Shown: positions 3,385 to 30,938 of the stretch, one piece after another | Layout of the letters: each line of letters opens with the position of its first letter | Position numbering within the stretch: the stretch's first letter is position 1 | Origin: Candidatus Saganbacteria bacterium | Lineage (GTDB): Bacteria > Margulisbacteria > WOR-1 > XYC2-FULL-46-14 > XYC2-FULL-37-10 | DNA length: 64,000 nt | Assembly (NCBI GenBank): GCA_016223245.1 | Contig: JACRPL010000021.1 | Location: forward strand, 37,725-101,724 | Reading direction: 5' to 3' | Notes under the pieces: generated by a model | Seen by the model: only the letters and a program-made list of their open reading frames with translations | Told to the model about the DNA's origin: nothing | The model's database searches: none | Made by a program: the position numbers and the translations under genes

Positions 3385-3397
3385 TATTCATAAGTCG

Positions 3398-4255: not shown

Positions 4256-4604
4256 AAAAGGCGCTTTATACCTTTTGCCCTTGGAACAAAAAGAGCTGGC
4301 AGTAAGGCTTGGTCTGCACCCGTCGACCATCTCGCGTGCGATCGCAGGGAAATATGCGCAAACACCTCTAGGTCTCCTGCCTTTGAAATTCTTGTGTCCC
4401 AGGGAATTCAAGGGCAATACCCCCGCCTCGATAAAGGCCAAAATGTCCGATTTGGTTTCAACAGAAGACAAGATGAGCCCTTTGAGCGACGATGACATAA
4501 AAAACACGCTGTTGAGCCTTGGAGTTAGGATCGAACGAAGGACCATTGCCGCTTACCGCAAACAGCTTGGCATTTTGCCTGCATCCGAGAGAATAAAAAA
4601 ATGA
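4218..4604 (+). CDS. rpoN: RNA polymerase sigma-54 factor, C-terminal part (HTH and RpoN box) in the +1 frame
   Basis: QKDFFEKGALYLLPLEQKELAVRLGLHPSTISRAIAGKYAQTPLGLLPLKFL is the sigma-54 DNA-binding HTH. RRTIAAYRKQLGI is RpoN-box-like. This frame is open only from 4209. Confidence 0.8.
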   Translation: MGIIMETQKDFFEKGALYLLPLEQKELAVRLGLHPSTISRAIAGKYAQTPLGLLPLKFLCPREFKGNTPASIKAKMSDLVSTEDKMSPLSDDDIKNTLLSLGVRIERRTIAAYRKQLGILPASERIKK

Positions 4605-8765: not shown

Positions 8766-9663
8766 ACGGCTGGATGTCTTTGTTTCAAAACTAGATATCG
8801 GGCTATCAAGATCGCAGGCAAAGCGGCTCATAGACCATAACGAAATATTATTAAATGGGCTTCCCGCAAAATCGAGCCATGTTTTAAGGCCAAATGATAA
8901 AGTTGCCGTCAATATTCCGAAGCCCGCGAAACTTGAAGCAGTATCCCAAGATATTCCCCTTAATATTATTTATGAAGACCAGGATTTAATCGTTGTAAAC
9001 AAGCCGCGCGGAATGGTCGTCCATCCGGCGGCAGGGAATTATTCCGGAACTTTAGTCAATGCGCTGTTATTCCATTGTAAAGATCTTTCAGGAATTGGAG
9101 GCGTTATGCGTCCCGGCATCGTTCATCGTCTGGACAAAGATACAACAGGCGTAATTGTCGCCACAAAAAACGATAATGCGCACGCGTCATTAAGCAAACA
9201 ATTCAAAGATCATGCGGTAAAAAAAATATATCTTGCTTTGGTCAAAGGCATTGTAAAAGACGATAAAGGGGAGATAAACGAACCGATAGGGCGGCATCCC
9301 GTAAATAGAAAAAAAATGGCTGTCATCAGTAGGGTCAAGGGTCAAGGGGCAAGCGGCAAGACGAGGGAAGCTTATACCGAATATGAGGTCGTTAAGCGAT
9401 TTTCGGATACAACACTTCTAACAATTAATCTTGGAACAGGGCGCACTCACCAGATTAGGGTCCACATGGCGCATTTGGGCCATCCGCTTGTAGGTGATCC
9501 GGTGTATGGAAAAGGCCCCTCGACTTCGCTCGGGGTAAACGGACAAATGCTGCATGCCGAAACTTTAGGTTTTAAGCATCCAACGACCGGAAAATATATG
9601 GAGTTTAAGGCCGAGATGCCTGATGATATGAAAGTTTTTTTAGTAGATCACGTAAGAAGTTAA
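8731..9663 (+). CDS. rluD: 23S rRNA pseudouridine synthase, RluD family
   Basis: S4 domain followed by the catalytic HRLDKDTTG motif and RTHQIRVH. Start taken at ATG 8731. The ORF-track 8617 start overlaps lgt. Confidence 0.88.
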   Translation: MEYFIKEQNQNKRLDVFVSKLDIGLSRSQAKRLIDHNEILLNGLPAKSSHVLRPNDKVAVNIPKPAKLEAVSQDIPLNIIYEDQDLIVVNKPRGMVVHPAAGNYSGTLVNALLFHCKDLSGIGGVMRPGIVHRLDKDTTGVIVATKNDNAHASLSKQFKDHAVKKIYLALVKGIVKDDKGEINEPIGRHPVNRKKMAVISRVKGQGASGKTREAYTEYEVVKRFSDTTLLTINLGTGRTHQIRVHMAHLGHPLVGDPVYGKGPSTSLGVNGQMLHAETLGFKHPTTGKYMEFKAEMPDDMKVFLVDHVRS

Positions 9664-9927
9664 GAAGCCTAGGAACGCTGGGAAGAAAATAAAGATCGAT
9701 GTCTCAACAAGCCCGCCGAACTCGATGCCGACAAGCTTTAATATTCCATACATAGAAAGCCCGATTAGTACGCTTAGAAATGCCCCATGAAAAAATCTCT
9801 TTAATATAGAAATAATCGGATTAGTTTTAGGAATATTCTTTTCTTCAACAATAATATGCGGAACGCTTTCTTCCGGAAGCGGATGAAGAAGCCTTACTTG
9901 TATATTTGCCGGAACTTTCGCTAACAC
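9640..9927 (-). CDS. Hypothetical small membrane protein
   Basis: 95-aa ORF with two C-terminal hydrophobic helices. GGAGG lies 6 nt upstream of its GTG start. No recognisable family. Confidence 0.4.
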   Translation of the reverse strand: MLAKVPANIQVRLLHPLPEESVPHIIVEEKNIPKTNPIISILKRFFHGAFLSVLIGLSMYGILKLVGIEFGGLVETSIFIFFPAFLGFLTSYVIY

Positions 9928-10027
9928 TTTAAACCTCCAAGGATCCCTATTTTATTATCGCGTCGAAATATGAAAAATTTCAGTTTATTTTATTAAATTG
10001 TGAGATGTATAGGTACATCCAAGCGTA

Positions 10028-13952: not shown

Positions 13953-16779
13953 ATTCCCTTAACTCTAAAATATATGGGCGTAATTTATTAAATGCAGCAA
14001 CTTCGATCTGTCTTATTCTTTCTCTTGTTAGACCAAGCATTTGACCGACTTCCTCGAACGTATGGTCGATATTTCCATTCAATCCAAATCTTTGTTCAAG
14101 CACAAATCTTTCTTTGCCCTTGAGCGATGTAACCAGTTCCTTTTTTAATGATTCACTTAACATCCTCTTCATTGTTTCAGCTTCAGGGTTTGGCGACGAT
14201 TGATCCGATACCCCACTTCCGAGTTCAGCATCTCCATCTAATTTGGGCGCATTTAAAGATAAAGTTTGTTGTGTTTGTTTTTTTATTCCTCTTAATTTTG
14301 CAAGAGGAATTTCGAGGTATGCCGCAATTTCCGACTCTTCCGGCTCCCGCTCGAAAGCGATCCGGAGTTCGCATTCCGCGCGATTTATTTTTTTCATGAT
14401 ATCTTGAGTATAGTTTGAAATCCATATCGTACGCCCTTGATTCCCAATTGCACGCAATATTTCTGCTTTGATCCAAATGCATCCATAATGGGCTAAAGTT
14501 CCTTTTTCCGGTTCGTACAATTCAACAGCCCTATATAGGCCAAGAATACCTTCTTGTACGAGGTCGGCAAAATCCAATCCTCTTCCAACATATTTCTTTG
14601 CCATCATGTAAACAAGTCTCATATTTTCGTTAACAGTGGCCCAATTTTTTCTGGAGAGGTCAGCGCTATTATCTACCGGCAGGTGCATTCGTTTTGTTGT
14701 ATTCCAATTTATTGAAGTCATTTCGTCTTCGGGGATCCCAAATTTATCGACCTTCATTCTTTTGAATATGGCCTCGTTCCCCGGAGTAGGGTGGCACAAG
14801 GCCCACCTTGTGAGATAGGATAAGTTCGGGTCGTTAAATAATACCTTTAAGGCCAGAAGCATTCTTTTTCCGGTGAATTTGTCAAAGTCGAGCAAGGAAG
14901 GCAGGAGCCTGAAAGCATTTTGGAAAAGATACGGATCGCTTCCGTAATATCCATGCGCCAATCCCGACAGAACTTCAAGGGCATAAGCAATGCTTGTCGA
15001 GTTGTGTGTTTCTTGATTGAAATACTGGGCAAGCGCCATTAAATTCTGTTCGCTTGTGTTGGACCTTGTTATGTTTTGGACGAGCCATTCATAGTATTCT
15101 TTTCTTTTTTTTAAGTGCGCTTCTCTTGTAAGGTCGGATGATTTTACTTCCATAGCTTTTTTCAATAGTTCAAAATCATAAGGATTCGCTCGATATGCTT
15201 CCGCGTATAATTCAAAAGCCTTATTAAAACCATCTGGATCAAGCAAACTTTTTCCCGCAGAATCAAAATGCACTGCCGCTTGTTTTGCTTTTTCACCCGA
15301 GATAGGCTTATCTACCGTTAGATCTTGTTCACCCGATCTTGCGCGAATGATAAGCTCGCACAATTCCCTTTCATCTCGGCTCATCCTCGCCGCGTCAGTA
15401 AAAAATAGCACTTCTTTCCCATCAAAAGCAAGAAGGGATAACTGCAATGGCTTCATTTCCCATGGGCACCTGTGCGTCACAAACATTAATACATCGCCGA
15501 ATTTGATCTTTTGTACGCTGTTCGCGACACTTGTACTGAATTGTTCGATCAGACGGTATCCGTGCAATTTATCTTTTTCAAGAAATGAGAAAGTAGTGTT
15601 TGCCAGTGTGAATTTTTCCCATGACCATTCCCAATTCAATACGAAAGGCAAAACGGTTCTGTTGTTTTTTTTATCTGTGTGGATAAGTGCGCAAACCTTA
15701 TTTCCAATCGCTTCAACTTCAAGCATAACGCCTGCTTGCAAGCCAAGTTTTTTGGCTATTTCTTCGCCAATTCGGATGACAGGTTTTTTACCGAAGCAGA
15801 TATAGTAGCTAGTTTTTCCCTTTACTGAGTCAGCGCAAACTTTAGTAAATATCTTTTCTTCAGCGTCTTTTAACTTATGTTTTTCTATTTGCTCTCCGCC
15901 AATCAAGATTGTAGTTTTTCCTTCTTTGTCATGTTTCCTTGTAATTGATAAAGGATTTTTACTGCTGTTTTCAGCAAATATCTGGTAGACGGAGCCATCT
16001 TTTATTCTTATCTTGAATACTTCGTTTTCTTTTCTTCGCCTCCCGGCAAAGAAAATCTTTATGCCAAATATTTCCGATGAAAATATCGAATCTTTTTTAT
16101 TTGAAACGACAAAATAATTTGTAATTCCTAGGTTTATAAAATAGAAGAGGAAGTTTTTTAGGTCGAAGTTAAGGTCGCCAATAAAACTATTATCTTTGGC
16201 ATTAAACATGAGCAGAATTATGTCTTCTCCGATTCTTTGCGGGGCAAGGAGAACTTCCGTTTTTTCGCGGATTCCCGTCGGATATGGGATCAGTTTGCCT
16301 TCGTGTTCAAACATAACTATCCCCAATTCGTCGGATTCGGTCCGAAGAAGTCCGGAAAATCCTATGCCAAGTTTTGCTTCATCCATGAAAGTCGTAAAAA
16401 AGTTATTTCGATCAGTTATTTCAGGCCTAGTTTTAAGTATTGCCCCATCATAGCCAAGAGCTACCTCCCAGAAGTTTATTCCTGGTTTTTTCTGTCCAAT
16501 CCCATTTACCGTATCTACAGGGATTCCGTTAACAACGAGAGGGCTCCCGTCGATCCTTAAAAATGCTCCATGGCGGTCAACAGGGATTGCAAGCTTTGCT
16601 TCGCCTGTTTTGTCAATAAACATTAAACCTGAACCAGAAGAAAATGAAACATTGCAGCCACCGCGCGCCAACATTTTGTTTGTCCCATTAGACCTCGAAA
16701 ATGAGAATTTCCAACCATTTACTCTAACTGCGGTTAACTGCGGGCTTGTATGAGGGGCTCTTGATCTTACAAGTTCCAT
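13942..16779 (-). CDS. Giant sigma-70-family protein: ~690-aa uncharacterised N-terminal region fused to sigma regions 2-4
   Basis: Single uninterrupted 945-aa ORF. The C-terminus has region 2 (DLVQEGILGLYRAVELYEPEKG...WIKAEILRAI), region 3, and region 4 HTH (TFEEVGQMLGLTRERIRQIEVAAFNKLR). The N-terminus has no family I recognise. Confidence 0.7.
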   Translation of the reverse strand: MELVRSRAPHTSPQLTAVRVNGWKFSFSRSNGTNKMLARGGCNVSFSSGSGLMFIDKTGEAKLAIPVDRHGAFLRIDGSPLVVNGIPVDTVNGIGQKKPGINFWEVALGYDGAILKTRPEITDRNNFFTTFMDEAKLGIGFSGLLRTESDELGIVMFEHEGKLIPYPTGIREKTEVLLAPQRIGEDIILLMFNAKDNSFIGDLNFDLKNFLFYFINLGITNYFVVSNKKDSIFSSEIFGIKIFFAGRRRKENEVFKIRIKDGSVYQIFAENSSKNPLSITRKHDKEGKTTILIGGEQIEKHKLKDAEEKIFTKVCADSVKGKTSYYICFGKKPVIRIGEEIAKKLGLQAGVMLEVEAIGNKVCALIHTDKKNNRTVLPFVLNWEWSWEKFTLANTTFSFLEKDKLHGYRLIEQFSTSVANSVQKIKFGDVLMFVTHRCPWEMKPLQLSLLAFDGKEVLFFTDAARMSRDERELCELIIRARSGEQDLTVDKPISGEKAKQAAVHFDSAGKSLLDPDGFNKAFELYAEAYRANPYDFELLKKAMEVKSSDLTREAHLKKRKEYYEWLVQNITRSNTSEQNLMALAQYFNQETHNSTSIAYALEVLSGLAHGYYGSDPYLFQNAFRLLPSLLDFDKFTGKRMLLALKVLFNDPNLSYLTRWALCHPTPGNEAIFKRMKVDKFGIPEDEMTSINWNTTKRMHLPVDNSADLSRKNWATVNENMRLVYMMAKKYVGRGLDFADLVQEGILGLYRAVELYEPEKGTLAHYGCIWIKAEILRAIGNQGRTIWISNYTQDIMKKINRAECELRIAFEREPEESEIAAYLEIPLAKLRGIKKQTQQTLSLNAPKLDGDAELGSGVSDQSSPNPEAETMKRMLSESLKKELVTSLKGKERFVLEQRFGLNGNIDHTFEEVGQMLGLTRERIRQIEVAAFNKLRPYILELREFIE

Positions 16780-16780
16780 G

Positions 16781-16791
16781 TATATATATCG
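16781..16791 (-). promoter_or_regulatory. CGATATATATA box immediately 5' of the giant-sigma ATG
   Basis: Minus strand reads tttCGATATATATAcATG. The same CGATATATAT core occurs at 18550, 29231 and 30848 in the sense orientation of the downstream genes. Confidence 0.5.
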
Positions 16792-16814
16792 AAAGAATTA
16801 GGGGCAGATTTCAG

Positions 16815-18188
16815 TTATCTTCCGCCGACAACGATCTGGGGAATTCTAATAGTAGGCTGGGCATCGGACACTGGTACATGGTCATATTTGCCGCAGATGC
16901 CGACCTGGAAGCCAAGGTCGGATCCTACCATATCAATAGTTTCTAAAACTCTAGGCCCGTTCCCTGTAAGAATTGCACCACGAACTGGATGCGTAACTTT
17001 TCCGTTCTCGATAAGATAGCCCTCATTTATTTCAAAAACAAAATCGCCATTGGCGACATTTACTTCTCCGCCGCCTATTCGAATAACTAATATTCCATTC
17101 TTTACGGAATCAATTATCTCTTGAGGATCGGAATGGCCTGAAGCGATCATTGTATTTGTCATGCGAGGAACAGGCTTTGTCCTGAATGATTCCCGGCGCC
17201 CATTTCCCGATGATTTTATTCCAAGTTCCCTTGCCGTATACCAATCGCTTAGAAATCCTTTTAGAATTCCATTCTCTATTAGAATGGTCTTTTGTGCAGG
17301 GGTTCCTTCATCATCAAATGCAGCTGATCCAAATTTTTGAGGAAGGGTAGTGTCGTCAATTACAGTTATAAGCGGGCTTGCGACGAATTTTCCAAGCTTC
17401 CCGTTGAAAATAGATGTTCCTTTCATAATAAAATCCGCTTCAAGCGAATGTCCGCATGCTTCATGAATTAATGTTCCGCCGGCTTCAGATGATAATACCG
17501 CCATCATTTTGCCTGATGGAGCATGAGGCGCATCAAGCATAAGCACAGCTCTTTTTGCAGCTTTACCCGCCATTTCAGCCGGAGGATAAATATCAAATAG
17601 TTCAAAACCGACAGATCCTCCAGGAGCTTCATATCCGGTTTGGAGCACTCCGTTCTTTTCGGCTATGACATTAATAAAATATCTTGAGCGGATGCGATTG
17701 TCTTCTATATATATGCCTTCAGAATTAGCGATCGTCACCGCTTGGTTTGTGTCGGAATATCTAACTGTTACTTGTTTTATCTTTGGGCCGAACGATCTTG
17801 CGGTTTTATTTAATATATCGACCATGCCGATCTTTTCATCTAGTACGATCAGGTTAGGCCTTTTAAGGATTGAACTCATTTGTTCAGGGATATTGGGAAC
17901 AATATCTTTTATTTTTTTTGGTTCGCCTTTGATCGATTGAGCGATCTTCTGCGCGGCGGATATTAGCCCCTCATAACTTGTATCAGTTGATGCTATGTAT
18001 GAAACTTCTTTATTTGAAATAAGGCGGATACCTGCGCCAATATCCGTGCCTGAGATTATCTTTTCTATTTTATTATCTTCGCAGGAAACGGTTGTCGCGT
18101 TCGATTCTTCAATAAAGACCTCGGCGAGATCCCCGCCGTTTTTGAGGGCGGTAGATAGAATTTCTTCAAGATTATTGAGAGAAAGCAT
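16815..18188 (-). CDS. tldD: Metalloprotease TldD
   Basis: 457 aa with the TldD/PmbA fold signature and HEACGHSLEADF metal site. Confidence 0.88.
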   Translation of the reverse strand: MLSLNNLEEILSTALKNGGDLAEVFIEESNATTVSCEDNKIEKIISGTDIGAGIRLISNKEVSYIASTDTSYEGLISAAQKIAQSIKGEPKKIKDIVPNIPEQMSSILKRPNLIVLDEKIGMVDILNKTARSFGPKIKQVTVRYSDTNQAVTIANSEGIYIEDNRIRSRYFINVIAEKNGVLQTGYEAPGGSVGFELFDIYPPAEMAGKAAKRAVLMLDAPHAPSGKMMAVLSSEAGGTLIHEACGHSLEADFIMKGTSIFNGKLGKFVASPLITVIDDTTLPQKFGSAAFDDEGTPAQKTILIENGILKGFLSDWYTARELGIKSSGNGRRESFRTKPVPRMTNTMIASGHSDPQEIIDSVKNGILVIRIGGGEVNVANGDFVFEINEGYLIENGKVTHPVRGAILTGNGPRVLETIDMVGSDLGFQVGICGKYDHVPVSDAQPTIRIPQIVVGGR

Positions 18189-18532
18189 CAGTTAGAGGTT
18201 AAGACTTTTTCTTCTATATGTTTGATTCTTTCTTCATGGTTCTCAAGCTTGACTTCTTGTCGGCGGGATTGAGCATATGACATCTTTTGTTCAATGGACA
18301 GATCTTCAAGTTTTTTCATTATTTTATCTTGGCTTGTGAGGATATCGTTTTTTAATTCTGATTTTAAGCTATTAAGACCGGTTTGAAGTTCCTGTTTTGT
18401 GGCAAATATTGCAGAAAACTTAATAATAATGTTTTCAATGTCTTTTTTTGTGATTACCATATTAAGAATATTATATATATCCAGCTTATTAATTGCAACA
18501 TGAAATTTTAATTCTTCTTTCGCCTGCTGCAA
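18188..18532 (-). CDS. Hypothetical coiled-coil protein
   Basis: 114 aa, heptad-rich (ELQTGLNSLKSELKNDILTSQDKIMKKLEDL). Its TGA shares one base with the tldD ATG. Confidence 0.4.
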   Translation of the reverse strand: MQQAKEELKFHVAINKLDIYNILNMVITKKDIENIIIKFSAIFATKQELQTGLNSLKSELKNDILTSQDKIMKKLEDLSIEQKMSYAQSRRQEVKLENHEERIKHIEEKVLTSN

Positions 18533-18549
18533 TTATCTAGTGTTTTTGA

Positions 18550-18618
18550 CGATATATATGCGGGCCAAAAAGAAAAAGATAATCCATGGGAAAATGGGTT
18601 GATTTTTCAGAGGTCTCA
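18550..18618 (+). promoter_or_regulatory. Conserved leader element, copy X (upstream of the 252-aa orphan gene)
   Basis: cGATATATATGCGGGCCAAAAAGAAAAAGATAATCCATGGGAAAATGGGTTGATTTTTCAGAGGTCTCA. 67 of 68 nt are identical to the reverse complement of 29163-29230. Confidence 0.8.
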
Positions 18619-18634
18619 GTAAGAGATAAACAAA

Positions 18635-19393
18635 TTGATCAATACGAATTTATATATTAAACCCGGGCAGTTAAGACCCTTAGGGCTTGGAAAAGTTGAA
18701 CAGAGAATGGTACTAAATGTTGTAAATGGAATTGGGCGCCTCGAAAGCCGTTTTCTTTTGCTTTTCCATATATTTTATTTCAGCAAGGGCAAAATGGATG
18801 TTTGCCAGCATGCAGCTTTCGCGTTATCGCGAGTGCTTGGAGCAAGATATGATCTTCCGGTGTCCAACACTTTGAAGCCAAATATTGATCATATAGAAAT
18901 AGCAGTCGGGGTATTTGCTCCGCAGGATCTTTCGAGATCCTTTCATCAGACATTTTTAAAAGTGTTTCTTAAAGGCAAGACATTTTACCTCGATCCAACC
19001 CTTAAGTATTTAGAGGAGGATGTCCCATCGATCATTTTGCGCGAATATCCGGCTGGCGAATTCGACAGCCGCCTTCAAAATGAATTCATGATAGAACCGT
19101 ACGCTCCAAACCATCGTGCTTATGCGCACCGTGCCATAATTGCAAGCCAGTACCTTGATCTCGGAAGCCGTGCAAAATACGTTGAGGCATCGTTACGATT
19201 GCTGCATGATCCAAAACTGGTCGTTGATGTTGACCAACGCGAAGCGATATATTTCAGCCAGGATGACTGGACTAGACTTGATAGGATAATAAGAGCTATT
19301 GAACCAAAGGGAGGCCTTCCTTCTATTGAAACACAAGTTGAACAATTATCTGGTGATGAACTTTTGCGCTGGAGTGTATTTGGCGGCATTTAG
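18635..19393 (+). CDS. Hypothetical protein, possible transglutaminase-like/papain-like Cys-His-Asp fold
   Basis: 252 aa. Ordered candidate triad: C in KMDVCQHAAFALSRVLG, H in IDHIEIAVGVF, D in TFYLDPT. Start uncertain (TTG 18635 or ATG 18707). Confidence 0.45.
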   Translation: MINTNLYIKPGQLRPLGLGKVEQRMVLNVVNGIGRLESRFLLLFHIFYFSKGKMDVCQHAAFALSRVLGARYDLPVSNTLKPNIDHIEIAVGVFAPQDLSRSFHQTFLKVFLKGKTFYLDPTLKYLEEDVPSIILREYPAGEFDSRLQNEFMIEPYAPNHRAYAHRAIIASQYLDLGSRAKYVEASLRLLHDPKLVVDVDQREAIYFSQDDWTRLDRIIRAIEPKGGLPSIETQVEQLSGDELLRWSVFGGI

Positions 19394-19399
19394 TCCAGC

Positions 19400-22180
19400 T
19401 CACTTCGCTTCCGCCCAGTTCTCCCCAACTCCAATATCAATTTTTAGAGGGACAGAAAGCTTTAAGGCATTCTGCATTTCATCTTGGATGATCTTTTTAA
19501 CTTTATCGACTTCAGAATTCGGGACTTCGAAGACCAATTCGTCGTGGACCTGCAGGATCATTTGACATTTGACACTTGACATTTGACATTTGCGATGGAT
19601 ATTTACCATCGCTAACTTTATCATATCGGCTGCGGTTCCTTGGACTGGAGTATTTATAGCCGTTCTCTCGGCAAAACCTCTCATTCCTTGATTGGGAGAA
19701 TTAATATCGGGTAGGGGGCGTTTTCGCCCAAGCATCGTTGTTACAAATCCTGTATCTTTAGCATCTTTAATAGTTTTTTCTATAAAAGCCTTTATGCCGG
19801 GATATCTTTTGAAATATTTTTCAATAAATTGCTCGGCTTCCGTTCTTTTGATCTTTAAACTTTTAGCCAAGCCAAAACCGGATATCCCGTAAATGATCCC
19901 AAAATTAACTGTTTTAGCGCTTGATCTCATTTCTTTTGTAACTTTATCAAGAGGTACATTGAAGATATCGGCAGCCGTTGCAGTATGGATATCTTCATCC
20001 AATTTGAAAGCCTCAATAAATTTTTCATCTTGTGAAAGATGCGCGAGAACCCTTAATTCAATTTGAGAATAATCGGCCGCAATTATCTTATATCCTTTAT
20101 TTTGCGGGACAAATGCTTCTCTTACTCTTTTTCCAAGTTCGGATTTTACGGGAATATTCTGCATATTTGGATTTGAGCTCGATAACCTGCCTGTCGCAGT
20201 GATCGTTTGGTTGAAATTTGCATGAACGCGTCCGGTTTCTTTATTTATTAGTTCCGGCAAAGTATCAACGTAGGTTGATTTGAGTTTGTTCAATCCTCGA
20301 TATTCCAGAAGTTTTTCAGCGATCTCAAATTGGCCGGACAATTCTTCCAATACTTCCGCATCTGTTGAAGCGCCTGTTTTTGTTTTCTTAATTATGGGCA
20401 GCTTTAGTTTCTCAAATAAAACTACAGCCAATTGCTTTGGAGAGTTCAAATTGAAAACTTCTCCGCATATGGCAAAGATGTGCCGCTCAAGATCTTTCAT
20501 TGCAAGTTCGATCTCTTGGCTAAGTTTCTTTAAGTATTTGGCATCGATGAAAACACCTGTCTCTTCCATTTTGATCAACACATCAAGCAATGGCATCTCA
20601 ATTTTGTTAAAGACATCCTCCATATTTTCCGACTTGAGAGTTTTCTCAAAGACTTCTTTTAACCCGCGAGTCACATCGGCATCCGAACATGCGTAATCTT
20701 TCGCGACATCTATCGGAACTGTTGCGAAGTTGCCTTCAGACCCAAGTTCATCGAAGTTTATCATTTCTGTTCGGCCAAGATACTGCGCGCCGACTTTCTT
20801 TAAACTATACCTGCCGATAGTCGGGTCGATCAAATATGCGGCTACCATGGTGTCGAAATAGGGTGACGATACTTCAATATCGTATTTTTTCATCACCTCG
20901 ACGTCGTACTTTAAATTATGTCCGATCTTGAGCTTGGTTTTATCTTCAAAAATCGGTTTTAGCGCAGTTAATGCCATTTTAATATTAACTTGCGGCTGAA
21001 CGCCGCGGTTAATGCTTTTGGAACCGCGAGCCGTGCCTACCGGCAGGCAGGGTTCACTCGCAGGTTCCACCTTGTGCCCAAAAGGCAAATAAAAAGCTTC
21101 GCTTTCGTCAATTGAAAAAGATATACCTATAAGATTTGCTTTGAAAGTATTGAGGCTGTCTGTCTCGGTATCAAAGGCAAAAGACTCGCATTCTTTTAAT
21201 TTATGGATTAGGTTTTGATAATGATTATCATTATCAATTAGCTTGAAGTTGAATTTCGAAATTTCTTTCCTTTTTGTCTCAACCTTGTCGAATAGATTGG
21301 GGGTTTGATGCTCCTTGTATTTGTTTATCAGAGTCTTGAATTCCATTCGTTCGAAGAATTTAATGACTTTTTCCCAGTCCGGGGTTTGAGTTGATGTGAA
21401 ATCGGTTTCGAGTGGTACGTCAGTTATAATCGTTACCAGCATTTTGCTCAAATGCGCTTTTTCTTGTTCGTTCAATAATGTTTCGCGAAGCTTTGGCTTT
21501 TCGATATCTTTGGCATGAGCTAATAAATTATCAAGTGTATGATATTTTTTTAATAGTTCAGCGGCTGTTTTATCTCCGATCCCGGGCATTCCCGGGACAT
21601 TGTCAGATGTATCGCCTTTTAAAGCTTTAAAATCAATTAATTGGTTTGGTTTGAGGCCATATCTTTCCTCAACTGCTTTTTCGTCATAGATAACTATGTC
21701 GGAGATCCCTTTCCTGGTAGTCATTACTTTTATTTTCTCTGTTACAAGCTGTAATGCGTCGCTGTCGCCTGTTACTATTTCTACTTCAAAGCCTTCTTTT
21801 TCTGCCTTCTTGGCCAAAGTTCCTATGAGATCGTCGGCTTCAAAGCCTACTAATTCATAGATCGGGATATTTAGGTCTTCGACCAGTTCTTTTATATACG
21901 GAAATTGAGGATGGAGGGTGGGAGGCGCTTTATCTCTTGTTCCCTTGTATTCTTTGTATTTTATATGGCGGAAGGTCGGTTCTTTCCTGTCGAAAGCGAC
22001 TGCAATATAATCCGGTTTTTCCTCGACAAGCTTTAGGATCATCGAAGTGAAGCCATATATGGCATTAGTTACTATGCCTTCGGAGTTCTTCATGGTGTCT
22101 GGAAGCGCATAAAAAGCGCGGTAGGCAAGCGAGTTGCCGTCGATCAGGATTGCTTTAGGGTTGTATAAAGATTTGACCAA
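19400..22180 (-). CDS. polA: DNA polymerase I
   Basis: 926 aa with 5'-nuclease (ILIDGNSLAYRAFYA), 3'-5' exonuclease and polymerase domains (RRSAKTVNFGIIYG-type motif B, QVHDELVFE motif C). The TTG start abuts the HEPN stop. Confidence 0.95.
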   Translation of the reverse strand: MVKSLYNPKAILIDGNSLAYRAFYALPDTMKNSEGIVTNAIYGFTSMILKLVEEKPDYIAVAFDRKEPTFRHIKYKEYKGTRDKAPPTLHPQFPYIKELVEDLNIPIYELVGFEADDLIGTLAKKAEKEGFEVEIVTGDSDALQLVTEKIKVMTTRKGISDIVIYDEKAVEERYGLKPNQLIDFKALKGDTSDNVPGMPGIGDKTAAELLKKYHTLDNLLAHAKDIEKPKLRETLLNEQEKAHLSKMLVTIITDVPLETDFTSTQTPDWEKVIKFFERMEFKTLINKYKEHQTPNLFDKVETKRKEISKFNFKLIDNDNHYQNLIHKLKECESFAFDTETDSLNTFKANLIGISFSIDESEAFYLPFGHKVEPASEPCLPVGTARGSKSINRGVQPQVNIKMALTALKPIFEDKTKLKIGHNLKYDVEVMKKYDIEVSSPYFDTMVAAYLIDPTIGRYSLKKVGAQYLGRTEMINFDELGSEGNFATVPIDVAKDYACSDADVTRGLKEVFEKTLKSENMEDVFNKIEMPLLDVLIKMEETGVFIDAKYLKKLSQEIELAMKDLERHIFAICGEVFNLNSPKQLAVVLFEKLKLPIIKKTKTGASTDAEVLEELSGQFEIAEKLLEYRGLNKLKSTYVDTLPELINKETGRVHANFNQTITATGRLSSSNPNMQNIPVKSELGKRVREAFVPQNKGYKIIAADYSQIELRVLAHLSQDEKFIEAFKLDEDIHTATAADIFNVPLDKVTKEMRSSAKTVNFGIIYGISGFGLAKSLKIKRTEAEQFIEKYFKRYPGIKAFIEKTIKDAKDTGFVTTMLGRKRPLPDINSPNQGMRGFAERTAINTPVQGTAADMIKLAMVNIHRKCQMSSVKCQMILQVHDELVFEVPNSEVDKVKKIIQDEMQNALKLSVPLKIDIGVGENWAEAK
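19559..19592. repeat. Dispersed oligo-repeat, GACAAATGTCAAAT family, in frame inside polA
   Basis: catttgacatttgacacttgacatttgacatttg encodes (minus strand) KCQMSSVKCQM, directly before the conserved ILQVHDELVFE motif. Confidence 0.8.
21020..21068. repeat. CCTGCC/GGCAGG-type palindromic element in frame inside polA
   Basis: ggaaccgcgag-ccg-tgcct-accggc-aggca-gggttca-ctcgc-a-ggttcc, three nested stems. Encodes VEPASEPCLPVGTARGSKS between the exonuclease motifs. Confidence 0.7.
22095..22159. repeat. 65-bp direct repeat, copy 1 (codons 2-23 of the original polA, now in the live gene)
   Basis: 60 of 65 nt are identical to 23100-23164. Confidence 0.9.
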
Positions 22181-22582
22181 TTATAAAAACTCTTTAATTC
22201 GTTTTTTTAATAACAGGGCTAATTTCTTTGTTGTCTTAATAACTTTTTTTAATTCTTCCGAGGTAATGTCTTCTCCTGGATACCTAAAACCAACGGCATA
22301 GGGATTTAATATCTTGAATTCAGAATATATTCCATACAAAAATGGGTCTTTTGGCTGGAGCAGTTTTAATAATTCAATTAGGTCATGTGTTTTAGGGAAT
22401 AATATCTCATGGCTGAGAAGTAATGTTTTTAGGTATTTTTCGATTGCTTGCTGGCAATGGAAAGCAATGATATAGAATGTTTTCTTTTTGCTTTTGTTTT
22501 TATTTAATGTTAACGCGGCTTCTAAGTCTCCCTCAGCCTTATCCTCCCACTCAATAACCAAGGATTTACTTGGATGAATCAT
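22181..22582 (-). CDS. HEPN-domain toxin (HepT-like) of an MNT/HEPN module
   Basis: 133 aa all-helical protein with QQAIEKYLK, KTHDL and RYPG motifs typical of HEPN. Overlaps the MNT gene by 17 nt. Confidence 0.75.
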   Translation of the reverse strand: MIHPSKSLVIEWEDKAEGDLEAALTLNKNKSKKKTFYIIAFHCQQAIEKYLKTLLLSHEILFPKTHDLIELLKLLQPKDPFLYGIYSEFKILNPYAVGFRYPGEDITSEELKKVIKTTKKLALLLKKRIKEFL

Positions 22583-22931
22583 ATAAGACTTTGCCCTTAT
22601 TTATTATTTCATGATAAAAAGGATCTCCCATTTTAAGTCGTTTTTTTACTTCACTAGGAGTTTTGATTAAGATGTCCATTGGAAAAAGATGCTCGATGTG
22701 TCGAGTTGCCCATGAATAACGCTTCATACCTTTCAACCTTGTATCTTTTATGAACAATAAATCAACATCGCTATCTTTGTTGGGATTTCCATAAGCATAT
22801 GATCCAAAAAGAATAACCTTTTCCGGTTTTATACTCTCCGCCGCAGTTTTAATTACTTTTGTTAGCTGCCGCTTAAAAAGTCGTTGCTTTGTCATAGTTG
22901 TTTGCCTTGTGAATATTATAGCATGAAACAT
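22566..22931 (-). CDS. Minimal nucleotidyltransferase antitoxin (MntA-like)
   Basis: GSYAYGNPNKDSDVDLLF is the classic GSx10DxD MNT motif. The likely true start is Met13 (22895), downstream of a TGcTATAAT box. Confidence 0.8.
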   Translation of the reverse strand: MFHAIIFTRQTTMTKQRLFKRQLTKVIKTAAESIKPEKVILFGSYAYGNPNKDSDVDLLFIKDTRLKGMKRYSWATRHIEHLFPMDILIKTPSEVKKRLKMGDPFYHEIINKGKVLYDSSK

Positions 22932-22940
22932 AAAATAGCA

Positions 22941-22967
22941 TTGACATTTTCTGGGGGGGGGTAGAAT
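22941..22967 (+). promoter_or_regulatory. Promoter-like TTGACA-N15-TAGAAT with a G9 homopolymer in the spacer
   Basis: TTGACA 22941-46, TAGAAT 22962-67. The spacer ttttct+GGGGGGGGG (G-run 22953-22961) is 2 nt shorter than optimal. Confidence 0.35.
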
Positions 22968-23025
22968 AAAAAAACAGAATATCAGAAGATCAGAGCGTCG
23001 GAATATAAATAGGAGGTGAAAAATT

Positions 23026-23151
23026 ATGTCAGAAATTTTAGGTTCCAGTTTTCACAAACCTGATCCGAGGAAATCGGCCAACTTTAAAGAGACTGCTGTG
23101 TGTCTGGAAGCGCGTAAAAAGCGAGATAGGCAAGCGAGTTGCCGTCGATAA
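23026..23151 (+). CDS. Small ORF (41 aa) with a consensus Shine-Dalgarno, antisense to the polA fossil
   Basis: AGGAGGTG lies 7 nt before the ATG. Encodes MSEILGSSFHKPDPRKSANFKETAVCLEARKKRDRQASCRR. Hand-translated. Coding status uncertain. Confidence 0.25.
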   Translation: MSEILGSSFHKPDPRKSANFKETAVCLEARKKRDRQASCRR

Positions 23152-23167
23152 GAATTGCTTTAGGCAT
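23084..23167 (-). pseudogene. polA: Fossil 5' end of polA (27 codons then stop), left behind by the cassette insertion
   Basis: Minus strand ATG CCT AAA GCA ATT... gives MPKAILIDGNSLAYLAFYALPDTQQSL*. Located 25 nt downstream of the tsf stop. Confidence 0.7.
23100..23164. repeat. 65-bp direct repeat, copy 2 (in the fossil polA start)
   Basis: Five differences from 22095-22159. Four are synonymous in the polA frame. Confidence 0.9.
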
Positions 23168-23192
23168 TGAACCTATTTTATCACAAAATAGA

Positions 23193-23795
23193 TTACGACT
23201 TCTCGCCTAGTTGGTATCTTGTAAATCGCCTTACAACGATGTTTTCGCCGATCTTTGCGGATAGTTCGCCTAAAAGGTCCTTTATCTTGACTTTTGGATC
23301 CTTGATAAAAGCCTGGTCCATTAAGCATACTTCTTCGTAAAACTTCTCGAGGCGTCCGATCATGATCTTTTCCATGGCGGCCGCAGGCTTCTTTTCCGTT
23401 TCTGCCTGTTTGAGCAATACTTCTTTCTCATGTTCTATCGAGGCTTCGGGAACTTCGCTTCTTGTGATATATTGCGGATTCTGCGCGGCTATTTGCATCG
23501 AGACGTCTTTTGCGAAATTATGGAAATCGGAATTCTTGGCGACGAAATCCGTTTCGCAATTGAGTTCGAGCAATACTCCAAGTTTTCCACCCATATGTAT
23601 GTAAGAGTTGATAATCCCTTGTGCGGCAACACGTTTCGCGCGTTTGGCAACAGATGCCAAACCTTTTTGCCTCAAAAGATCGACAGCTTGATCAATGTTG
23701 CCTTTGGTCTCGACCAAAGCTTTCTTGCAATCCATCATCCCGCAGCCTGTCTTTTCCCTTAGCTGTACGATTATTTCAGTTGTGATGTCGCCCAT
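23193..23795 (-). CDS. tsf: Elongation factor Ts (short form)
   Basis: UBA-like N-terminus LREKTGCGMMDCKKALVE and the EF-Ts core. 200 aa. Confidence 0.93.
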   Translation of the reverse strand: MGDITTEIIVQLREKTGCGMMDCKKALVETKGNIDQAVDLLRQKGLASVAKRAKRVAAQGIINSYIHMGGKLGVLLELNCETDFVAKNSDFHNFAKDVSMQIAAQNPQYITRSEVPEASIEHEKEVLLKQAETEKKPAAAMEKIMIGRLEKFYEEVCLMDQAFIKDPKVKIKDLLGELSAKIGENIVVRRFTRYQLGEKS

Positions 23796-24665
23796 TTAAA
23801 ATCCAACCCTTTCTTCGGTTTCTTTTTCTTTGACCAATACTTTAGGAGCAAGTTCCGCCAGCCTTTCTTCTTCGCTTAACATCATAGCTTCTTCCATGGT
23901 GGTTTCTTCTGTTTCGGCAGGCTTTGCTTCTCCTTCTTCCGCGGGAACGGCAATTTCTATAGTTCTTTCTTCGATCGGTTTGCCCATTTCACGGCCTGCA
24001 ATAACTGCTTCAGCGACGATTGCTGTCAATAACTTGATCGAGCGGATAGCGTCGTCATTTGCCGGAATAGGGAAGTCGACAACATCAGGATCGCAGTTTG
24101 TATCGACTACAGCGACAACTGGGATGTCTAGCCTTTTTGCTTCGGCGATCGCCGTTGCTTCTTTTTGCGAGTCTACGATAAATATGACGCTTGGAGGATT
24201 GACCATTTCACGGATACCGCCAAGGCCTCGGACTAGCTTCCCGTATTCTCGTTCAATACCTGCAACTTCTTTTTTCGGTAACTTTTCATAAGTGCCGTCA
24301 GTCTTCATTTTTTCAATTTCTTTCATACGGACGATGTTCTTCTTTAATGTTTTGAAATTGGTGAGTGTTCCGCCAAGCCATCTGTCCCTGACATAGAACA
24401 TGCCGCAGCGTTTTGCTTCTTCTTCGATAGCGTCCTGGGCTTGTTTCTTTGTTCCTACAAATAAAACAGTACCGTTGTCTTTTACCGCGTTCTTGATGAA
24501 ATCACATGCTTTTTCGATCAACGGAATGGTCTTGTGAAGGTCGATAACATGGATGTTATTTCTCGACGAATAAATATACTTTCCCATTTTTGGATTCCAA
24601 CGTTTACTTTGGTGCCCGAAATGAACCCCCGCTTCGAGCAACTCTTTCATGGTTACTACTGGCAT
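23796..24665 (-). CDS. rpsB: 30S ribosomal protein S2 with an acidic C-terminal tail
   Basis: [19 protein letters not shown] and the rest of the S2 fold. Abuts tsf. Confidence 0.95.
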
Positions 24666-24911
24666 TGCTTCCTCCTTAAATTATTAGGTCTATAGTTTTT
24701 CAAGCAGACAAACAATAATTTTATCACAGAATTGGCTTTTTTGCCAATGAAATTTGGACGGGATTGGACGATAATAACATAGAGAGCTCCGAAAAATTTG
24801 CAAGATAAAAAATATAGCAATTAATATGGTTGTTTTTTAAATCTGCCTGCCTTGGCTCGATCTTATAGCGTTCTCCTTTCATCACGATTTCATATTCCTC
24901 AAACCTGCGCT

Positions 24912-24929
24912 CGGCAGGATATCCTGCCG
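24912..24929. repeat. Perfect 18-nt palindrome of the CCTGCC/GGCAGG family (intergenic)
   Basis: cggcaggatatcctgccg, with ctgcctgcc also at 24843-24851. Confidence 0.7.
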
Positions 24930-25229
24930 GGCAAAAAAGGATTGATCATTTTGCCGACAATCTTTTTTTTCCTCATTTTTTTGTTTTTTCCCTTCTTCGT
25001 CAAAATACTCATCTTTCCTTTCTTCCAATATCCTGTCCAGGCTACCAGACAATAAGGAAAGGTTCCATCAGTCGCTTGATAACAAAACTCCTTGGCAGGT
25101 TTACTGCGGAGGGATCGTTGAAGGCTATGAAGTCCAGCCTTTAATGAGTGAGGTTTTCTATCTTAATTGTAGCAAGGAATTGGTCTTGACAAACCCGACC
25201 ACTTCACTTGGGGCATTAAAAAGGTAGGA

Positions 25230-25832
25230 TTATTTAACTAAAGCCATTCTGGACCAAAATGCAACGGCTCGCGCATATGCTTTAAGATCAATTGGCACAG
25301 GATTCGCAACTCCTCCAAAGTCTATTCCCAAACCATTTCTTAAAATCGTAATCGGCAGCATCGGTTCTTCTTTGCAGCCTGTAATGCCATTAATTGAAAT
25401 GATTCCCCAATTGGAATCAGCTGGATCAATTGCCTCGCCTTCAGTTTTAAGTTCTTCACTTGTATAAAGAATGATATCTAAATACGGCGCCTTGGGAGGG
25501 ACAACATCAGCTGAATCGAACCATCTTGTAAGTACTGGAAGCTCTTCCGTCTTGCGCGCAACATAACCCGTTTTAATAAATTTTTCATTGGCAGCCGTTA
25601 TTTCAACGACCCCGGCTCTTGCATCCGTAAAGTTCTCAAGAAATAAATGCGCGCAAAAAGAGACATAACCTGGCGTTAGCGATTTTCCTTGAGCCAATTG
25701 GTTCGCTTTATTCGTAAAAGCATTAGAATCTATATTACCAATTTTTGTTCCAGGAAATTCCGGGTTAAAATGCCTTCCTGCAGCAAACTGGGTCATTCCA
25801 ATTTTTATCATATTTCCAGCGGCAACATCCAT
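25230..25832 (-). CDS. Hypothetical 200-aa protein (DUF3228-like, from memory), translationally coupled to the 1091-aa gene
   Basis: ATG lies 2 nt after the upstream stop, with AGGAGG embedded in the upstream gene's 3' end. No catalytic motif recognised. Confidence 0.5.
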   Translation of the reverse strand: MDVAAGNMIKIGMTQFAAGRHFNPEFPGTKIGNIDSNAFTNKANQLAQGKSLTPGYVSFCAHLFLENFTDARAGVVEITAANEKFIKTGYVARKTEELPVLTRWFDSADVVPPKAPYLDIILYTSEELKTEGEAIDPADSNWGIISINGITGCKEEPMLPITILRNGLGIDFGGVANPVPIDLKAYARAVAFWSRMALVK

Positions 25833-25834
25833 TT

Positions 25835-28800
25835 TTATCTCCTCCTTGATAATTGCGACAACAAGTATGTTCCCATTTGTTCTTTTGCCCTAAGGATCCT
25901 AGGGTTCGTCCCTAGTTCTGCATCAGCCAACGTTTCCCCTTCTTTCCCTGGGATATCCGAAAAATAACCCATCATTGAAACTGACAAAGATGGCTTAGCG
26001 CCAAGACCTCTAACAAGCGGCCCCATTTCAAGTTCAACAGAAGTTGCCTTTCTTCCCATAAGGTCCGCAAGAAAAGCATCATGTTCTTGTAAAGGAGAAT
26101 CTACATAGCCCGCATGTGTTGTCAGGACAAATCTTATGGCACTATCTCCTGCTTTACTATCTGTGCCTCCAGCCAAATCAACAACTTCTTGCCTTTGAGC
26201 TAAAGCATAGGAAACAACATCATTGACAAAGCCATTAGCCTCTCCTTTTTCTTCAAGCATCGTACTTGGGACAAATAGATCCCCGACATTTATTTCTGTT
26301 TGATTTTGGCCCGCTCCGGCGATAAAACCGCCATTTCCAAAAAACGTCACATTTTCGACATTCTCTTCGGCAACTGCTTGCCCTAAATAACCTGATAAGC
26401 TCCCAAAAGGAATTGTTACCATAAGGAATGGCGCTTTCCCCGGCAATCTTATTAAACTTGCCTGGTAAACATCATTAGGCACGCGGGCTTTCATGCTTTC
26501 CGGTTTCAACTTCTCTGGCAATATAAAAGGAGGGTTTCTATTCATCCCAAGCTTCGCATAAACGCCTTCAAGCTTGTCTCTAAGCGCCAATAGCCTTGCA
26601 GCAAGGTTAGGATTAAGCATTATTTCTTCAGGATCTAGTGAAAAAGCCGCCGTCAAATTCGTTTTATCATCAAAAATTTGTCCAATGATTTTTGGCGTAA
26701 GCACTCTGATCTCAGCTTGAATATTTGGGATAGCTTGTTCTATCTCTTCATTTTGAGCAGTTTCATAGCTTTCAATTAAAATAATACCAAATTCCGCAAG
26801 AAGTTTTAAGCATTGTTTTATTCTCTTAATAAATACATTTTTCATCTCTTGCGCCGGTATTTTTGGATTGTTTTTTGTAAACGAGCCATAATCAAGGTTT
26901 GCCGCCAATTCCTCCAATTTCATATTAACTGCTCGGCTTAGATCTGCCTCAACTTCATTAAGCAATTCTTCGCCTTTCAACCCTGGTTTAAGGAAAGCAG
27001 CTAATACTCTTGCGGCATTTATCCTCTCTGCTAAAATATAGCTTATCGTTCCCCCTGGACCAACAACTACCATTTTTGGGAATTTGCCATTGTTTTTGCT
27101 TTTGGTTGCGGCAATCAAATTTTTGGCGTCCACCATATAATCTTCAGAATAGACATGATGGTATATTTTTTCAACGGATAATCCCGCATAAGTTAGATAC
27201 AGCCTCATATGCATCAATTTTGTTTCGCCAAGAATATTAACAACAATAAATTGATTAGTCCCTTTTACCCTATACCAATGCTGCTTAACGCCGTCTTCTG
27301 TTCTTTCTACCGCAAGCCGCTCCAATTGTGAACGTTTATCGGTGATATATTGCATGCTTGTAGAAAGCGGGCCATGATGCAATTCAATTGAAACAAATTT
27401 ACCTTCATCCAATAGGTCCAATGCGGCTTTTGGGATTCTGGGGATAAGATATTCAGGCAAATTCAATGAATGCCTGCGATACATTGCGACCCCTTGGCGC
27501 ACGTTTTCGATAACAGGCATTCTGCCGATAGCAGATACAATATCGTCAATTGAAAGCGATGTTTTTCTTTGTTCTGCCGGAAGCTCTTTTGGGAACATAG
27601 GAGATCCTCCCGCCTTTGAAAATCCGCCCCAACCCTTTCGCAGCTCCGAAAAGCCCAGTGTTGCTCTCTTTTTCTTTTCCTCTTGGCCTAACTTTTCCCA
27701 TAAATTTGTAAGGTCTATCTCGACTTCAAGCGAAGAATTCGGGTCGATCCCGACCATATATTCATATCCCATATTGCATTCAGCGTCATATGAGATGGCA
27801 AGATGTATCTGGTCCTTCGCGGCCCTTTTTCGGTTATACCCTTCCATGAACGCATATATCCCCCTGCGACTGACAACTTTTTTCCATTCAACATCCCCTC
27901 TCCAAGGATGTTTCACAATAATGGTATTTCCTCGAATTTCAACGCTTGTGTTGTTTGAATCATTTATCGCTTGAGCTAAATATTCGACTTCTCTTTCCAA
28001 TACTTCCCGCGCTCCTCTGTAAATCGCCAAATAACCATTAGGGAGGGTCGCTTCATGTTCTAGGCTATCAAGTATGCGGCAAAGATCTGAAAATACATTA
28101 TCTCTTAACACGGGGAATGCGGCTGCGCAACTTGTATGATAATCTTTGATCTCGAGGAATTTACCCCTTTCCAAAGAATACATTTCTTCAAGCAATAGCA
28201 TAAGTTTTCCGCCATCGGAACGGACGGATCCTTTCTGAAGATCAGATAGGTCCGAAGCTTCTAGTAATATTTTTTTCTGCCCTTCGCTTAAATAAAGCGC
28301 CAATCCAGGATTACATAACAGCCACTGTTCAATAAACGCATAACAATCGGAATAAACTTTAATTTTTCGGCCGTTTAAGGATTCCCTTTGAAGTGTTTCA
28401 AGTTTTTCGGTTGCTTCCATTATTTCTTTTGTTTGCGTAGTATCTTTATGCGGCAGGAAAAGGAAATCCTTTAATTCTGCCAATCGCTTCTGAATTGTTT
28501 CTCCGTTCATCCCGCGATTCTTTAATATAGCAGCAACCGGTTCACCAATATTTTTATCAAAATCAATATTATATCGTAAGGTAACCATAGACATTAATAT
28601 CCCTTGTTCAAGATTATCCGCAATTATTGGGACTAATTTATCAATATCGCTTGTGTCTACAAATAAAGCTTCTGGTTTTGAGTCAATGATCGTGCGCTGT
28701 CCGGCAAGAGATTGAGAAGGTTGGCTAACAGCCATTGCGCATGCAGCAGGGTTCGAAACGCCTGAAAGATCCAATGAATATACTGCTCCACAGAAAAATA

Positions 28801-29110: not shown

Positions 29111-29162
29111 CTGGTATTTTCCTCCATTGTTTTCCTAGCTATCATGATCATCTCGCTTACTA

Positions 29163-29231
29163 TGAGACCTCTGAAAAATCAACCCATTTTCCCATGGATT
29201 ATCTTTTTCTCTTTGGCCCGCATATATATCG
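29163..29231 (-). promoter_or_regulatory. Conserved leader element, copy Y (upstream of the 1091-aa gene)
   Basis: The reverse complement matches 18551-18618 at 67 of 68 nt. Weaker similarity continues about 15 nt further toward the gene. Confidence 0.8.
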
Positions 29232-29263
29232 ACAGCCCCCACCGAAGATTTCACTATGGAACA

Positions 29264-29297
29264 AACTATTTCCCAACTATTTTCCCAACTATTTCAA
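29264..29297. repeat. Three tandem 11-12-nt direct repeats (AACTATTT(T)CCC)
   Basis: aactatttccc aactattttccc aactatttcaa. They straddle the stop of the ARH gene, upstream of leader copy Y. A related ccaaccaactatttt occurs at 30875-30889. Confidence 0.65.
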
Positions 29298-30878: not shown

Positions 30879-30938
30879 CCAACTATTTTGGAAAATATAA
30901 GTGTTGACTCTTTAACCTTCCCCGCCTAAAATCAAATC

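Follow-up and report, generated by a model that had tools for sequence, protein, structure and literature searches.

Within a 64,000-nucleotide (nt) stretch of a Candidatus Saganbacteria genome (GenBank assembly GCA_016223245.1, contig JACRPL010000021.1, positions 37,725 to 101,724; hereafter the window), the 10-mer CGATATATAT recurs before four genes, one of which encodes an unusually large sigma factor (here giant sigma). Our analysis indicates that this 10-mer belongs to a rigid two-block promoter that probably heads about 70 transcription units and is read by an alternative sigma factor of the sigma-28 (FliA/SigD/WhiG) family, rather than by the primary sigma factor RpoD or by giant sigma. 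In the mechanism that we propose, a sigma-28-family factor (of either 240 or 196 amino acids [aa]) would read aaN-TGAAAT-t-N15-CGATA(A/T)-A-t-A-t, and transcription would start at the purine 12 nt past the C of CGATA. Some 70 transcription units, five of them in the window, would be driven in this way; their genes would mostly be lineage-specific and without known function or encode large surface proteins, with rpoD, Rel/SpoT and giant sigma in addition. Giant sigma itself would be a downstream member of a sigma cascade, made from a leaderless mRNA.

An exact search of the window found four matches to CGATATATAT where 0.16 is expected, a number reached in none of 100 shuffles. A preliminary description of the window had placed the four copies in sense orientation at the 5' ends of particular genes, which holds for all four, and had pointed to looser ATATATAT runs, which are present at 1053 and 17707. 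In every copy a -35-like TGAAAT (TGCAAT in copy 2) lies exactly 16 nt 5' of CGAT. A fifth promoter in the window lacks the exact 10-mer and has GGAGG and GTG 9927 downstream. The same description had an ATG directly follow the box in three copies; this is literally so, but no gene begins at any of these ATGs. Those of copies 2 and 3 each open a frame of 14 codons, that of copy 4 is followed at once by TGA, and all three lie 5' of the predicted transcription start. A real gene ATG stands beside the box only at giant sigma, 2 nt past it, and here the 35-nt gap that follows the tldD/pmbA stop codon (16815-16817) is taken up entirely by the promoter.

To describe the motif genome-wide, the whole genome (1.65 Mb in 24 contigs) was searched with an iteratively built position weight matrix (PWM), with the reversed genome as the control. 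CGATATATAT occurs 32 times, and at 19 of these occurrences a TGAAAT, a TGCAAT or a sequence close to them lies 15-16 nt upstream. Searched as GAAAT-Nx-CGATAT with spacings from 8 to 25, the two blocks give a single sharp peak at x = 16 (23 sites), with 0-8 sites at each other spacing. The iterated PWM scan, the kind of genome-wide scan that the preliminary description had proposed, returned 72 sites in the genome versus 1 in the reversed genome, nearly all of them in sense orientation just 5' of open reading frames (ORFs). The resulting consensus is a-a-N-T-G-A-A-A-T-t-N15-C-G-A-T-A-(A/T)-A-t-A-t, with a purine 12 nt past the C. Across the 72 sites, the -10 bases C, G, A, T and A are conserved in 57, 71, 71, 64 and 65, respectively, and in the -35 box TGAAAT the G (at the position where TAAA has its first T) is conserved in 70 and the final T in 71. 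From the spacing peak and the PWM consensus it follows that CGATATATAT joins the -10 element CGATAT to ATAT, the most frequent form of the sequence that separates the -10 from the transcription start, and is therefore not a stand-alone box. The motif, its spacing, its enrichment and its sense position before genes are direct observations. The earlier idea of a regulon stands insofar as a shared promoter joins the giant sigma gene to orphan genes, but this regulon is neither small nor local, with ~70 sites in the genome and the motif in all genomes of the class.

One possibility is that these sites are variant housekeeping promoters read by RpoD, in which GTGAAA would serve as the -35 and, beyond a spacer of 18 nt, GATAAT or GATATA as the -10. 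GTGAAA shares 4 of 6 positions with TTGACA and GATAAT 5 of 6 with TATAAT, the distance from box to ATG fits a sigma-70-type start, and the presence of the motif before rpoD throughout the class could reflect autoregulation. Primary sigma-70 promoters have the form TTGACA-N17(+/-1)-TATAAT, with T-12 and A-11 most conserved, and promoters of this kind exist in the genome as a class of their own: TTGACA-N17-TAnnAT is also enriched (25 sites versus 3 in the control), its spacing is flexible at 16-18 nt, and in the genome search the TTGACA/TAnnAT boxes and the TGAAAT/CGATA boxes do not mix. The motif is therefore not simply the housekeeping promoter. Invariance is highest in the first three bases of CGATA, with the G and the A both found in 71 of 72 sites, whereas RpoD would need T-12 and A-11 in another register. 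In addition, the spacing is fixed at one value, 18 nt is a less than ideal spacer length for a primary sigma factor, and the RpoD of this genome has canonical region 2.4 residues. We therefore consider reading by RpoD improbable.

We next consider the relatives of this genome, both in its class (WOR-1) and in the phylum Margulisbacteria. TGAAAT-N16-CGATA is present in 10 to ~190 copies per genome in all 64 other genomes of the class, versus 0-3 copies of a control pattern. We chose rpoD for phylogenetic footprinting; at a threshold of 1e-30, the N-terminal 200 aa of the Rel-like protein encoded behind the motif gave almost no matches. Among the rpoD loci of 30 class genomes, 29 carry TGAAATT-N15-CGATA(A/G), then GGAGG and the start codon, in register, and in the remaining one the motif is shifted by 1 nt. 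Across the class the spacers of these promoters have diverged while both boxes persist, which amounts to a phylogenetic footprint and therefore makes the primary sigma gene a conserved member of the regulon. In genomes outside the class, the motif stands before rpoD in the motif-rich G071 and G028, and no motif was found at rpoD in phylum families with motif counts at or near background. This conservation, like the distribution of sigma factors described below, was observed directly.

The position of the motif relative to genes also bears on translation. At 13 of the 61 sites with a clear downstream gene, an ATG lies exactly 12 nt past the C of CGATA (binomial P of ~4e-11). These sites, at which the ATG coincides with the predicted +1, have no ribosome-binding site, while most of the remaining ones have a GGAGG-type ribosome-binding site followed by a start codon 11-40 nt downstream. 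Giant sigma is among the 13, its ATG at 16779-16777 being the predicted transcription start. An mRNA that begins with its start codon would be leaderless, so about a fifth of the regulon, the giant sigma mRNA included, would be of this type. Leaderless mRNAs with a -10 box a few bases before the ATG are familiar from Actinobacteria and Deinococcus-Thermus. The likeness is the ATG at the predicted +1 with no ribosome-binding site; the difference is that the starts here would come from an alternative-sigma promoter, not from TATAAT. No report of a leaderless design from an alternative-sigma promoter in this lineage was found in the literature searched.

Despite the position of the box directly 5' of the giant sigma gene, the proposal in the preliminary description that giant sigma recognizes the box, regulates itself and co-regulates a small local regulon of four genes finds little in its favor. 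Regions 2-4 of giant sigma are 43% identical to RpoD of the same genome. Region 2.4 differs from that of RpoD at melting and -12-reading positions (W433 to I, Q437 to A and T440 to L), probably giving a -10 specificity unlike TATAAT, and region 4.2 is retained (TRERIRQIE) and could in principle read a -35 containing TGA; these features speak for the proposal. No sigma-28-type substitutions were found in region 2.4. The N-terminal ~700 aa match no known family, and homologues of these first 700 residues occur in just 3 of 146 phylum genomes. Likewise, in 38 other class genomes the sigma domain has no homologue closer than RpoD (41-44% identity). Because the N-terminal region is rare and the sigma domain lacks close relatives, yet the motif is class-wide and stands before rpoD, giant sigma would be a target of the promoter in a sigma cascade and is very unlikely to be its reader or autoregulator. 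The ~70 regulon members spread across the whole genome also speak against a local four-gene regulon, and we give the proposal as a whole only a very small chance of being correct.

Genome G142 provides a further point against reading by giant sigma. It encodes a 506-aa homologue of giant sigma residues 320-664 (31% identity, 1e-41) that has no sigma domain and yet has the same promoter, TGAAAT-N16-AGATAT, right before its start. This gene stands alone between lon and leuS (L007 1396-2916, on G142:C4). The existence of a stand-alone homologue of the middle region suggests that giant sigma may have arisen by fusion of a regulon member to a sigma domain. Three long sigma fusions are encoded in relatives, and the class promoter lies immediately 5' of each (PWM scores of 17-19; one with an ATG at +12). 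Since giant sigma and these three fusions all lie behind this promoter, sigma fusions are recurrent targets. The three fusions are sporadic in the class, and their N-terminal parts are unrelated or without known family, with one weak PAS match.

Promoters of this kind also appear to have been copied. The promoter of a gene for an 819-aa RelA/SpoT-domain protein (G000 C11:82036-82075) is ~80% identical to that of giant sigma, including the spacer and the acATGG start, and the two proteins are unrelated; the promoter was therefore copied and the gene was not. In the window, copies 2 and 3 form the arms of an inverted repeat of 72 nt (18547-18618 and 29163-29234; 97% identical). This repeat belongs to a nine-copy genome family of ~125 nt, ~90-100% identical, which comprises promoter plus 5' leader and stands before unrelated, mostly orphan genes. 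The leader of this module has a predicted 14-bp hairpin, the copies being too alike for covariation, and an Rfam search of 16500-31200 found no family matching the shared leader.

A 97% identical inverted repeat bracketing a 10.5-kb segment, and a 125-nt module found nine times in the genome, raise the question as to whether the copies of the 10-mer could mark the termini of a mobile or invertible element, or be what is left of one, with no promoter role. However, core genes, polA and rpsB among them, lie within this segment, and every copy is directed toward a gene whose ribosome-binding site and start codon come next. The ~60 other motif sites have only the two boxes in common, and at the orthologous rpoD loci of the class the boxes are conserved while the spacers have diverged. 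We regard such an element as extremely improbable. Because polA and rpsB lie between them, copies 2 and 3 are instead a case of promoter reuse, a duplicated cassette of promoter plus hairpin leader. These copied modules form one subfamily only; most motif sites share just the two boxes.

Which sigma factor reads this promoter? The genome encodes RpoD (350 aa), giant sigma, a 240-aa FliA/WhiG-type factor, a 196-aa factor and RpoN. The 240-aa factor has regions 2, 3 and 4 and lies inside the flgF-G-A-H-I ... flgB-C-fliE-F-G basal-body operon; the 196-aa factor has regions 2 and 4 only and directly follows flhA. The structural work on Pseudomonas aeruginosa FliA ties Y76, R80 and D87 to -11A, -12G and -13C and has R97 read the upstream GC (PMC12784957). 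Both small sigma factors keep the equivalents of Y76, R80 and D87 and have lost that of R97, a loss that agrees with the missing upstream GC in the motif. Relative to P. aeruginosa and Escherichia coli FliA, both have R at the Q228 position, and these residues do not separate the two candidates.

The P. aeruginosa fliC promoter read by sigma-28 consists of (-36)TCTAAAG(-30) and (-15)GCCGATAA(-8), with 17 nt from AAA to CGATAA (PMC12784957). The Saganbacteria motif has the same -10 core, CGATA(A/T), the same rigid spacing with 17 nt from AAA to CGATA, and a start expected ~12-13 nt past the C, and the genome encodes FliA-family sigma factors that retain the three -10-reading residues.

Several observations weigh against reading by a sigma-28-family factor or bear on the choice between the two candidates. 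The -35 has GAAA rather than TAAA (G in 70 of 72 sites), the upstream GC of GCCGATAA is not conserved, and canonical TAAA-N15-GCCGATAA sites are not enriched in the genome (3 versus 3 in the control, searched as TAAA-N15-GCCGATA). No flagellar or chemotaxis gene is among the 44 annotated downstream genes, and the gene behind the motif site beside the flhA cluster encodes a non-flagellar DUF3467 protein. In this genome, which is rated 100% complete, no flagellin (N- or C-terminal domain) and no FlgM could be detected. No motif was found upstream of either small sigma gene. Both small sigma factors are class-wide, so phyletic profiling does not separate them, and outside the class motif counts are weakly related to sigma similarity (rho of 0.27 and P of 0.07 for the 240-aa factor; rho of 0.12 and P of 0.43 for the 196-aa factor). 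Genome G142, which is 95% complete and has 107 motif sites, has no detectable 240-aa orthologue and also lacks flgI. Finally, promoter function, the transcript start and the identity of the sigma reader are what we infer from these sequence patterns. Taken together, this is not a classical sigma-28 regulon. Because the spacing and the -10 core fit, whereas the -35, the GC, the flagellar content of the regulon and FlgM do not, the element is best described as a probable variant of the sigma-28-family promoter kind, outside the classical class. It also differs from classical sigma-28 promoters in that rpoD, Rel and giant sigma fusions would be among its targets, along with numerous orphan genes, and in that about a fifth of its sites are predicted to be leaderless.

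Between the two candidates, we lean somewhat toward the 240-aa FliA/WhiG-type sigma factor. Strong orthologues of this factor (59-80% identity) are present in 56 of 64 class genomes, and the genomes without one are mostly incomplete or end at a contig edge beside flgI. Its best homologues outside the class are in G028 and G071, and family f39, which has neither motif enrichment nor a 240-aa homologue, does have the 196-aa sigma factor. The alternative, that the reader is the 196-aa two-domain factor, ECF-like rather than FliA/WhiG-type, is a less likely but serious contender. This factor is present in 64 of 65 class genomes, G142 among them, and 96 of the 97 phylum genomes with a completeness of 85% or more encode it. 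It keeps an equivalent of S224 in region 4.2 in addition to those of Y76, R80 and D87, and its two-domain architecture suits a rigid spacing without an extended -10 element. However, it is equally conserved (31-40%) in families f39, f43, f45 and f50, in which the motif is at or near background and rpoD lacks it, whereas G028 and G071, the two checked genomes outside the class with the motif at rpoD, are those with the best 240-aa homologues. The absence of flgI from G142 also means that its flg operon may simply be unassembled. A 71-aa ORF without a family match (L011 13047-13262, on G000:C6) lies between flhA and the 196-aa sigma gene, overlapping the start region of the latter; it is a possible partner or anti-sigma candidate.

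The ECF (group 4) comparison gives the 196-aa factor some of its appeal. ECF promoters such as those of Bacillus subtilis sigma-W have the form TGAAAC-N16-CGTATA, which resembles the motif in its two blocks, 16-nt spacer, TGAAA-type -35 and CG-initiated -10, and the 196-aa candidate lacks region 3, as ECF sigma factors do. The hallmarks of ECF systems (AAC in the -35, CGT in the -10 and an autoregulated operon with an anti-sigma factor) are, however, not seen here: the -35 has AAT (T in 71 of 72 sites) rather than AAC, the -10 has CGA rather than CGT, no motif lies 5' of the 196-aa sigma gene, and no co-transcribed anti-sigma gene is evident.

Use of a FliA-family sigma factor for a program other than late flagellar genes, as we propose, has parallels. 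Chlamydial sigma-28 drives late developmental genes. WhiG of Streptomyces is a sigma-28-family factor that serves sporulation (PMC12871210). The system proposed here would differ from both in that the candidate gene lies in a basal-body operon and in that the regulon is far larger (70 to ~190 sites per genome) and includes the primary sigma gene.

The 44 annotated genes downstream of the motif, about half of them without a Pfam match, include surface proteins of very large size (Ig-like, SLH or OMP-like), GH5 and GH8 hydrolases, a multihaem cytochrome, an Rrf2 regulator, a response regulator, a PhzF-like protein and a PLP enzyme. They also include a full-length Rel/SpoT enzyme and the 819-aa RelA/SpoT-domain protein, both predicted to be leaderless, as well as rpoD and giant sigma. 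The genome has a full complement of genes for basal-body and export components (FlhA, FlgB/C/F/G/A/H/I and FliE/F/G), the basal-body genes lack the motif, and this gene set may represent a filament-less basal body. One speculative extension, which we consider unlikely, is that the FliA-family sigma factor of a flagellin-less basal-body operon has been repurposed as a global switch, such that the state of the export apparatus controls a class-wide program of 70 to ~190 promoters. If so, the program would span rpoD, a Rel enzyme, sporadic giant sigma fusions and most lineage-specific orphan genes, and a flagellar checkpoint would have been turned into a master regulator of cell state.

A literature search found no paper that joins Saganbacteria with a sigma factor and nothing relevant on Margulisbacteria promoters. 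Our analysis offers a testable promoter model for an uncultivated lineage and gathers ~70 mostly unannotated genes into one putative co-regulated set, in which the primary sigma gene and the giant sigma fusions would lie downstream of an alternative sigma factor. For giant sigma, autoregulation gives way to a place in a cascade, which would narrow the conditions in which the protein is likely made. The model would also correct gene starts. For the HEAT/ADP-ribosylglycohydrolase (ARH) gene, the promoter implies a start at ATG 30824 (GAGG, an 8-nt spacer and ATG, with a 12-nt leader) rather than at TTG 30878, and several other starts, that of giant sigma included, would become leaderless. The features discussed here are listed in Table 1.

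Table 1. Promoter copies, associated genes and related loci. Plain coordinates are positions in the window; loci elsewhere carry a genome and contig handle.
Feature	Position	Strand	Details
CGATATATAT copy 1	16782-16791	-	Exact search; gene, giant sigma
CGATATATAT copy 2	18550-18559	+	Exact search; gene, 252-aa orphan
CGATATATAT copy 3	29222-29231	-	Exact search; gene, 1091-aa orphan
CGATATATAT copy 4	30839-30848	-	Exact search; gene, ARH
Giant sigma promoter (predicted)	16777-16813	-	-35 TGAAAT 16813-16808; 16-nt spacer; -10 CGATAT 16791-16786, then ATAT; PWM 33.9
Giant sigma gene, 945 aa	13942-16779	-	Sigma-70 regions 2, 3 and 4 at residues 716-934
Promoter copy 2 (predicted)	18528-18562	+	-35 TGCAAT (weaker) 18528-18533; 16-nt spacer; CGATATATAT; predicted start G18562; PWM 27.9
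5' leader of copy 2, common to copy 3	18562-18634	+	Predicted hairpin at ~18572-18608; -17 kcal/mol; z -2.6
252-aa orphan gene	18635-19393	+	Start TTG 18635 or ATG 18704
Promoter copy 3 (predicted)	29219-29253	-	-35 TGAAAT 29253-29248; CGATATATAT 29231-29222; predicted start G29219; PWM 33.9
Leader of 1091-aa gene, 109 nt	29111-29219	-	Same hairpin module as copy 2
1091-aa orphan gene	25835-29110	-	GTG start after GGAGG
Promoter copy 4 (predicted)	30836-30870	-	-35 TGAAAT 30870-30865; CGATATATAT 30848-30839; predicted start G30836; PWM 32.6
ARH gene	29289-30878	-	Coordinates from first possible start codon
Fifth promoter (predicted)	9948-9982 (motif 9956-9982)	-	TGAAAT 9982-9977; 16-nt spacer; CGATAATAAA from 9960; PWM 32.4
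95-aa membrane-protein ORF behind fifth promoter	9640-9927	-	GTG start
Long sigma fusion, 1014 aa	G137:C1 (L117)		C-terminal sigma-70 regions
Long sigma fusion, 760 aa	G142:C6 (L118)		C-terminal sigma-70 regions
Long sigma fusion, 777 aa	G113:C33 (L119)		C-terminal sigma-70 regions
Flagellar basal-body and export loci	G000 C5:99000-111000 (L010), C6:44000-62000 (L011)

Additional features were observed around promoter copies 3 and 4. Short tandem repeats of the aatagttggga type lie at 29264-29297, just 5' of copy 3, and overlap the ARH stop codon. A direct repeat (29212-29271 and 30829-30888; 75% identical) makes the upstream stretch of copy 3 partly common to copy 4.

Elsewhere in the window, rpoN (sigma-54; 3209-4604, + strand) is split into two overlapping frames, which could be due to a frameshift, a pseudogene or an assembly error. 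The frame at 3209-4255 encodes the activator-interacting and core-binding domains, and that at 4218-4604 encodes the DNA-binding domain.

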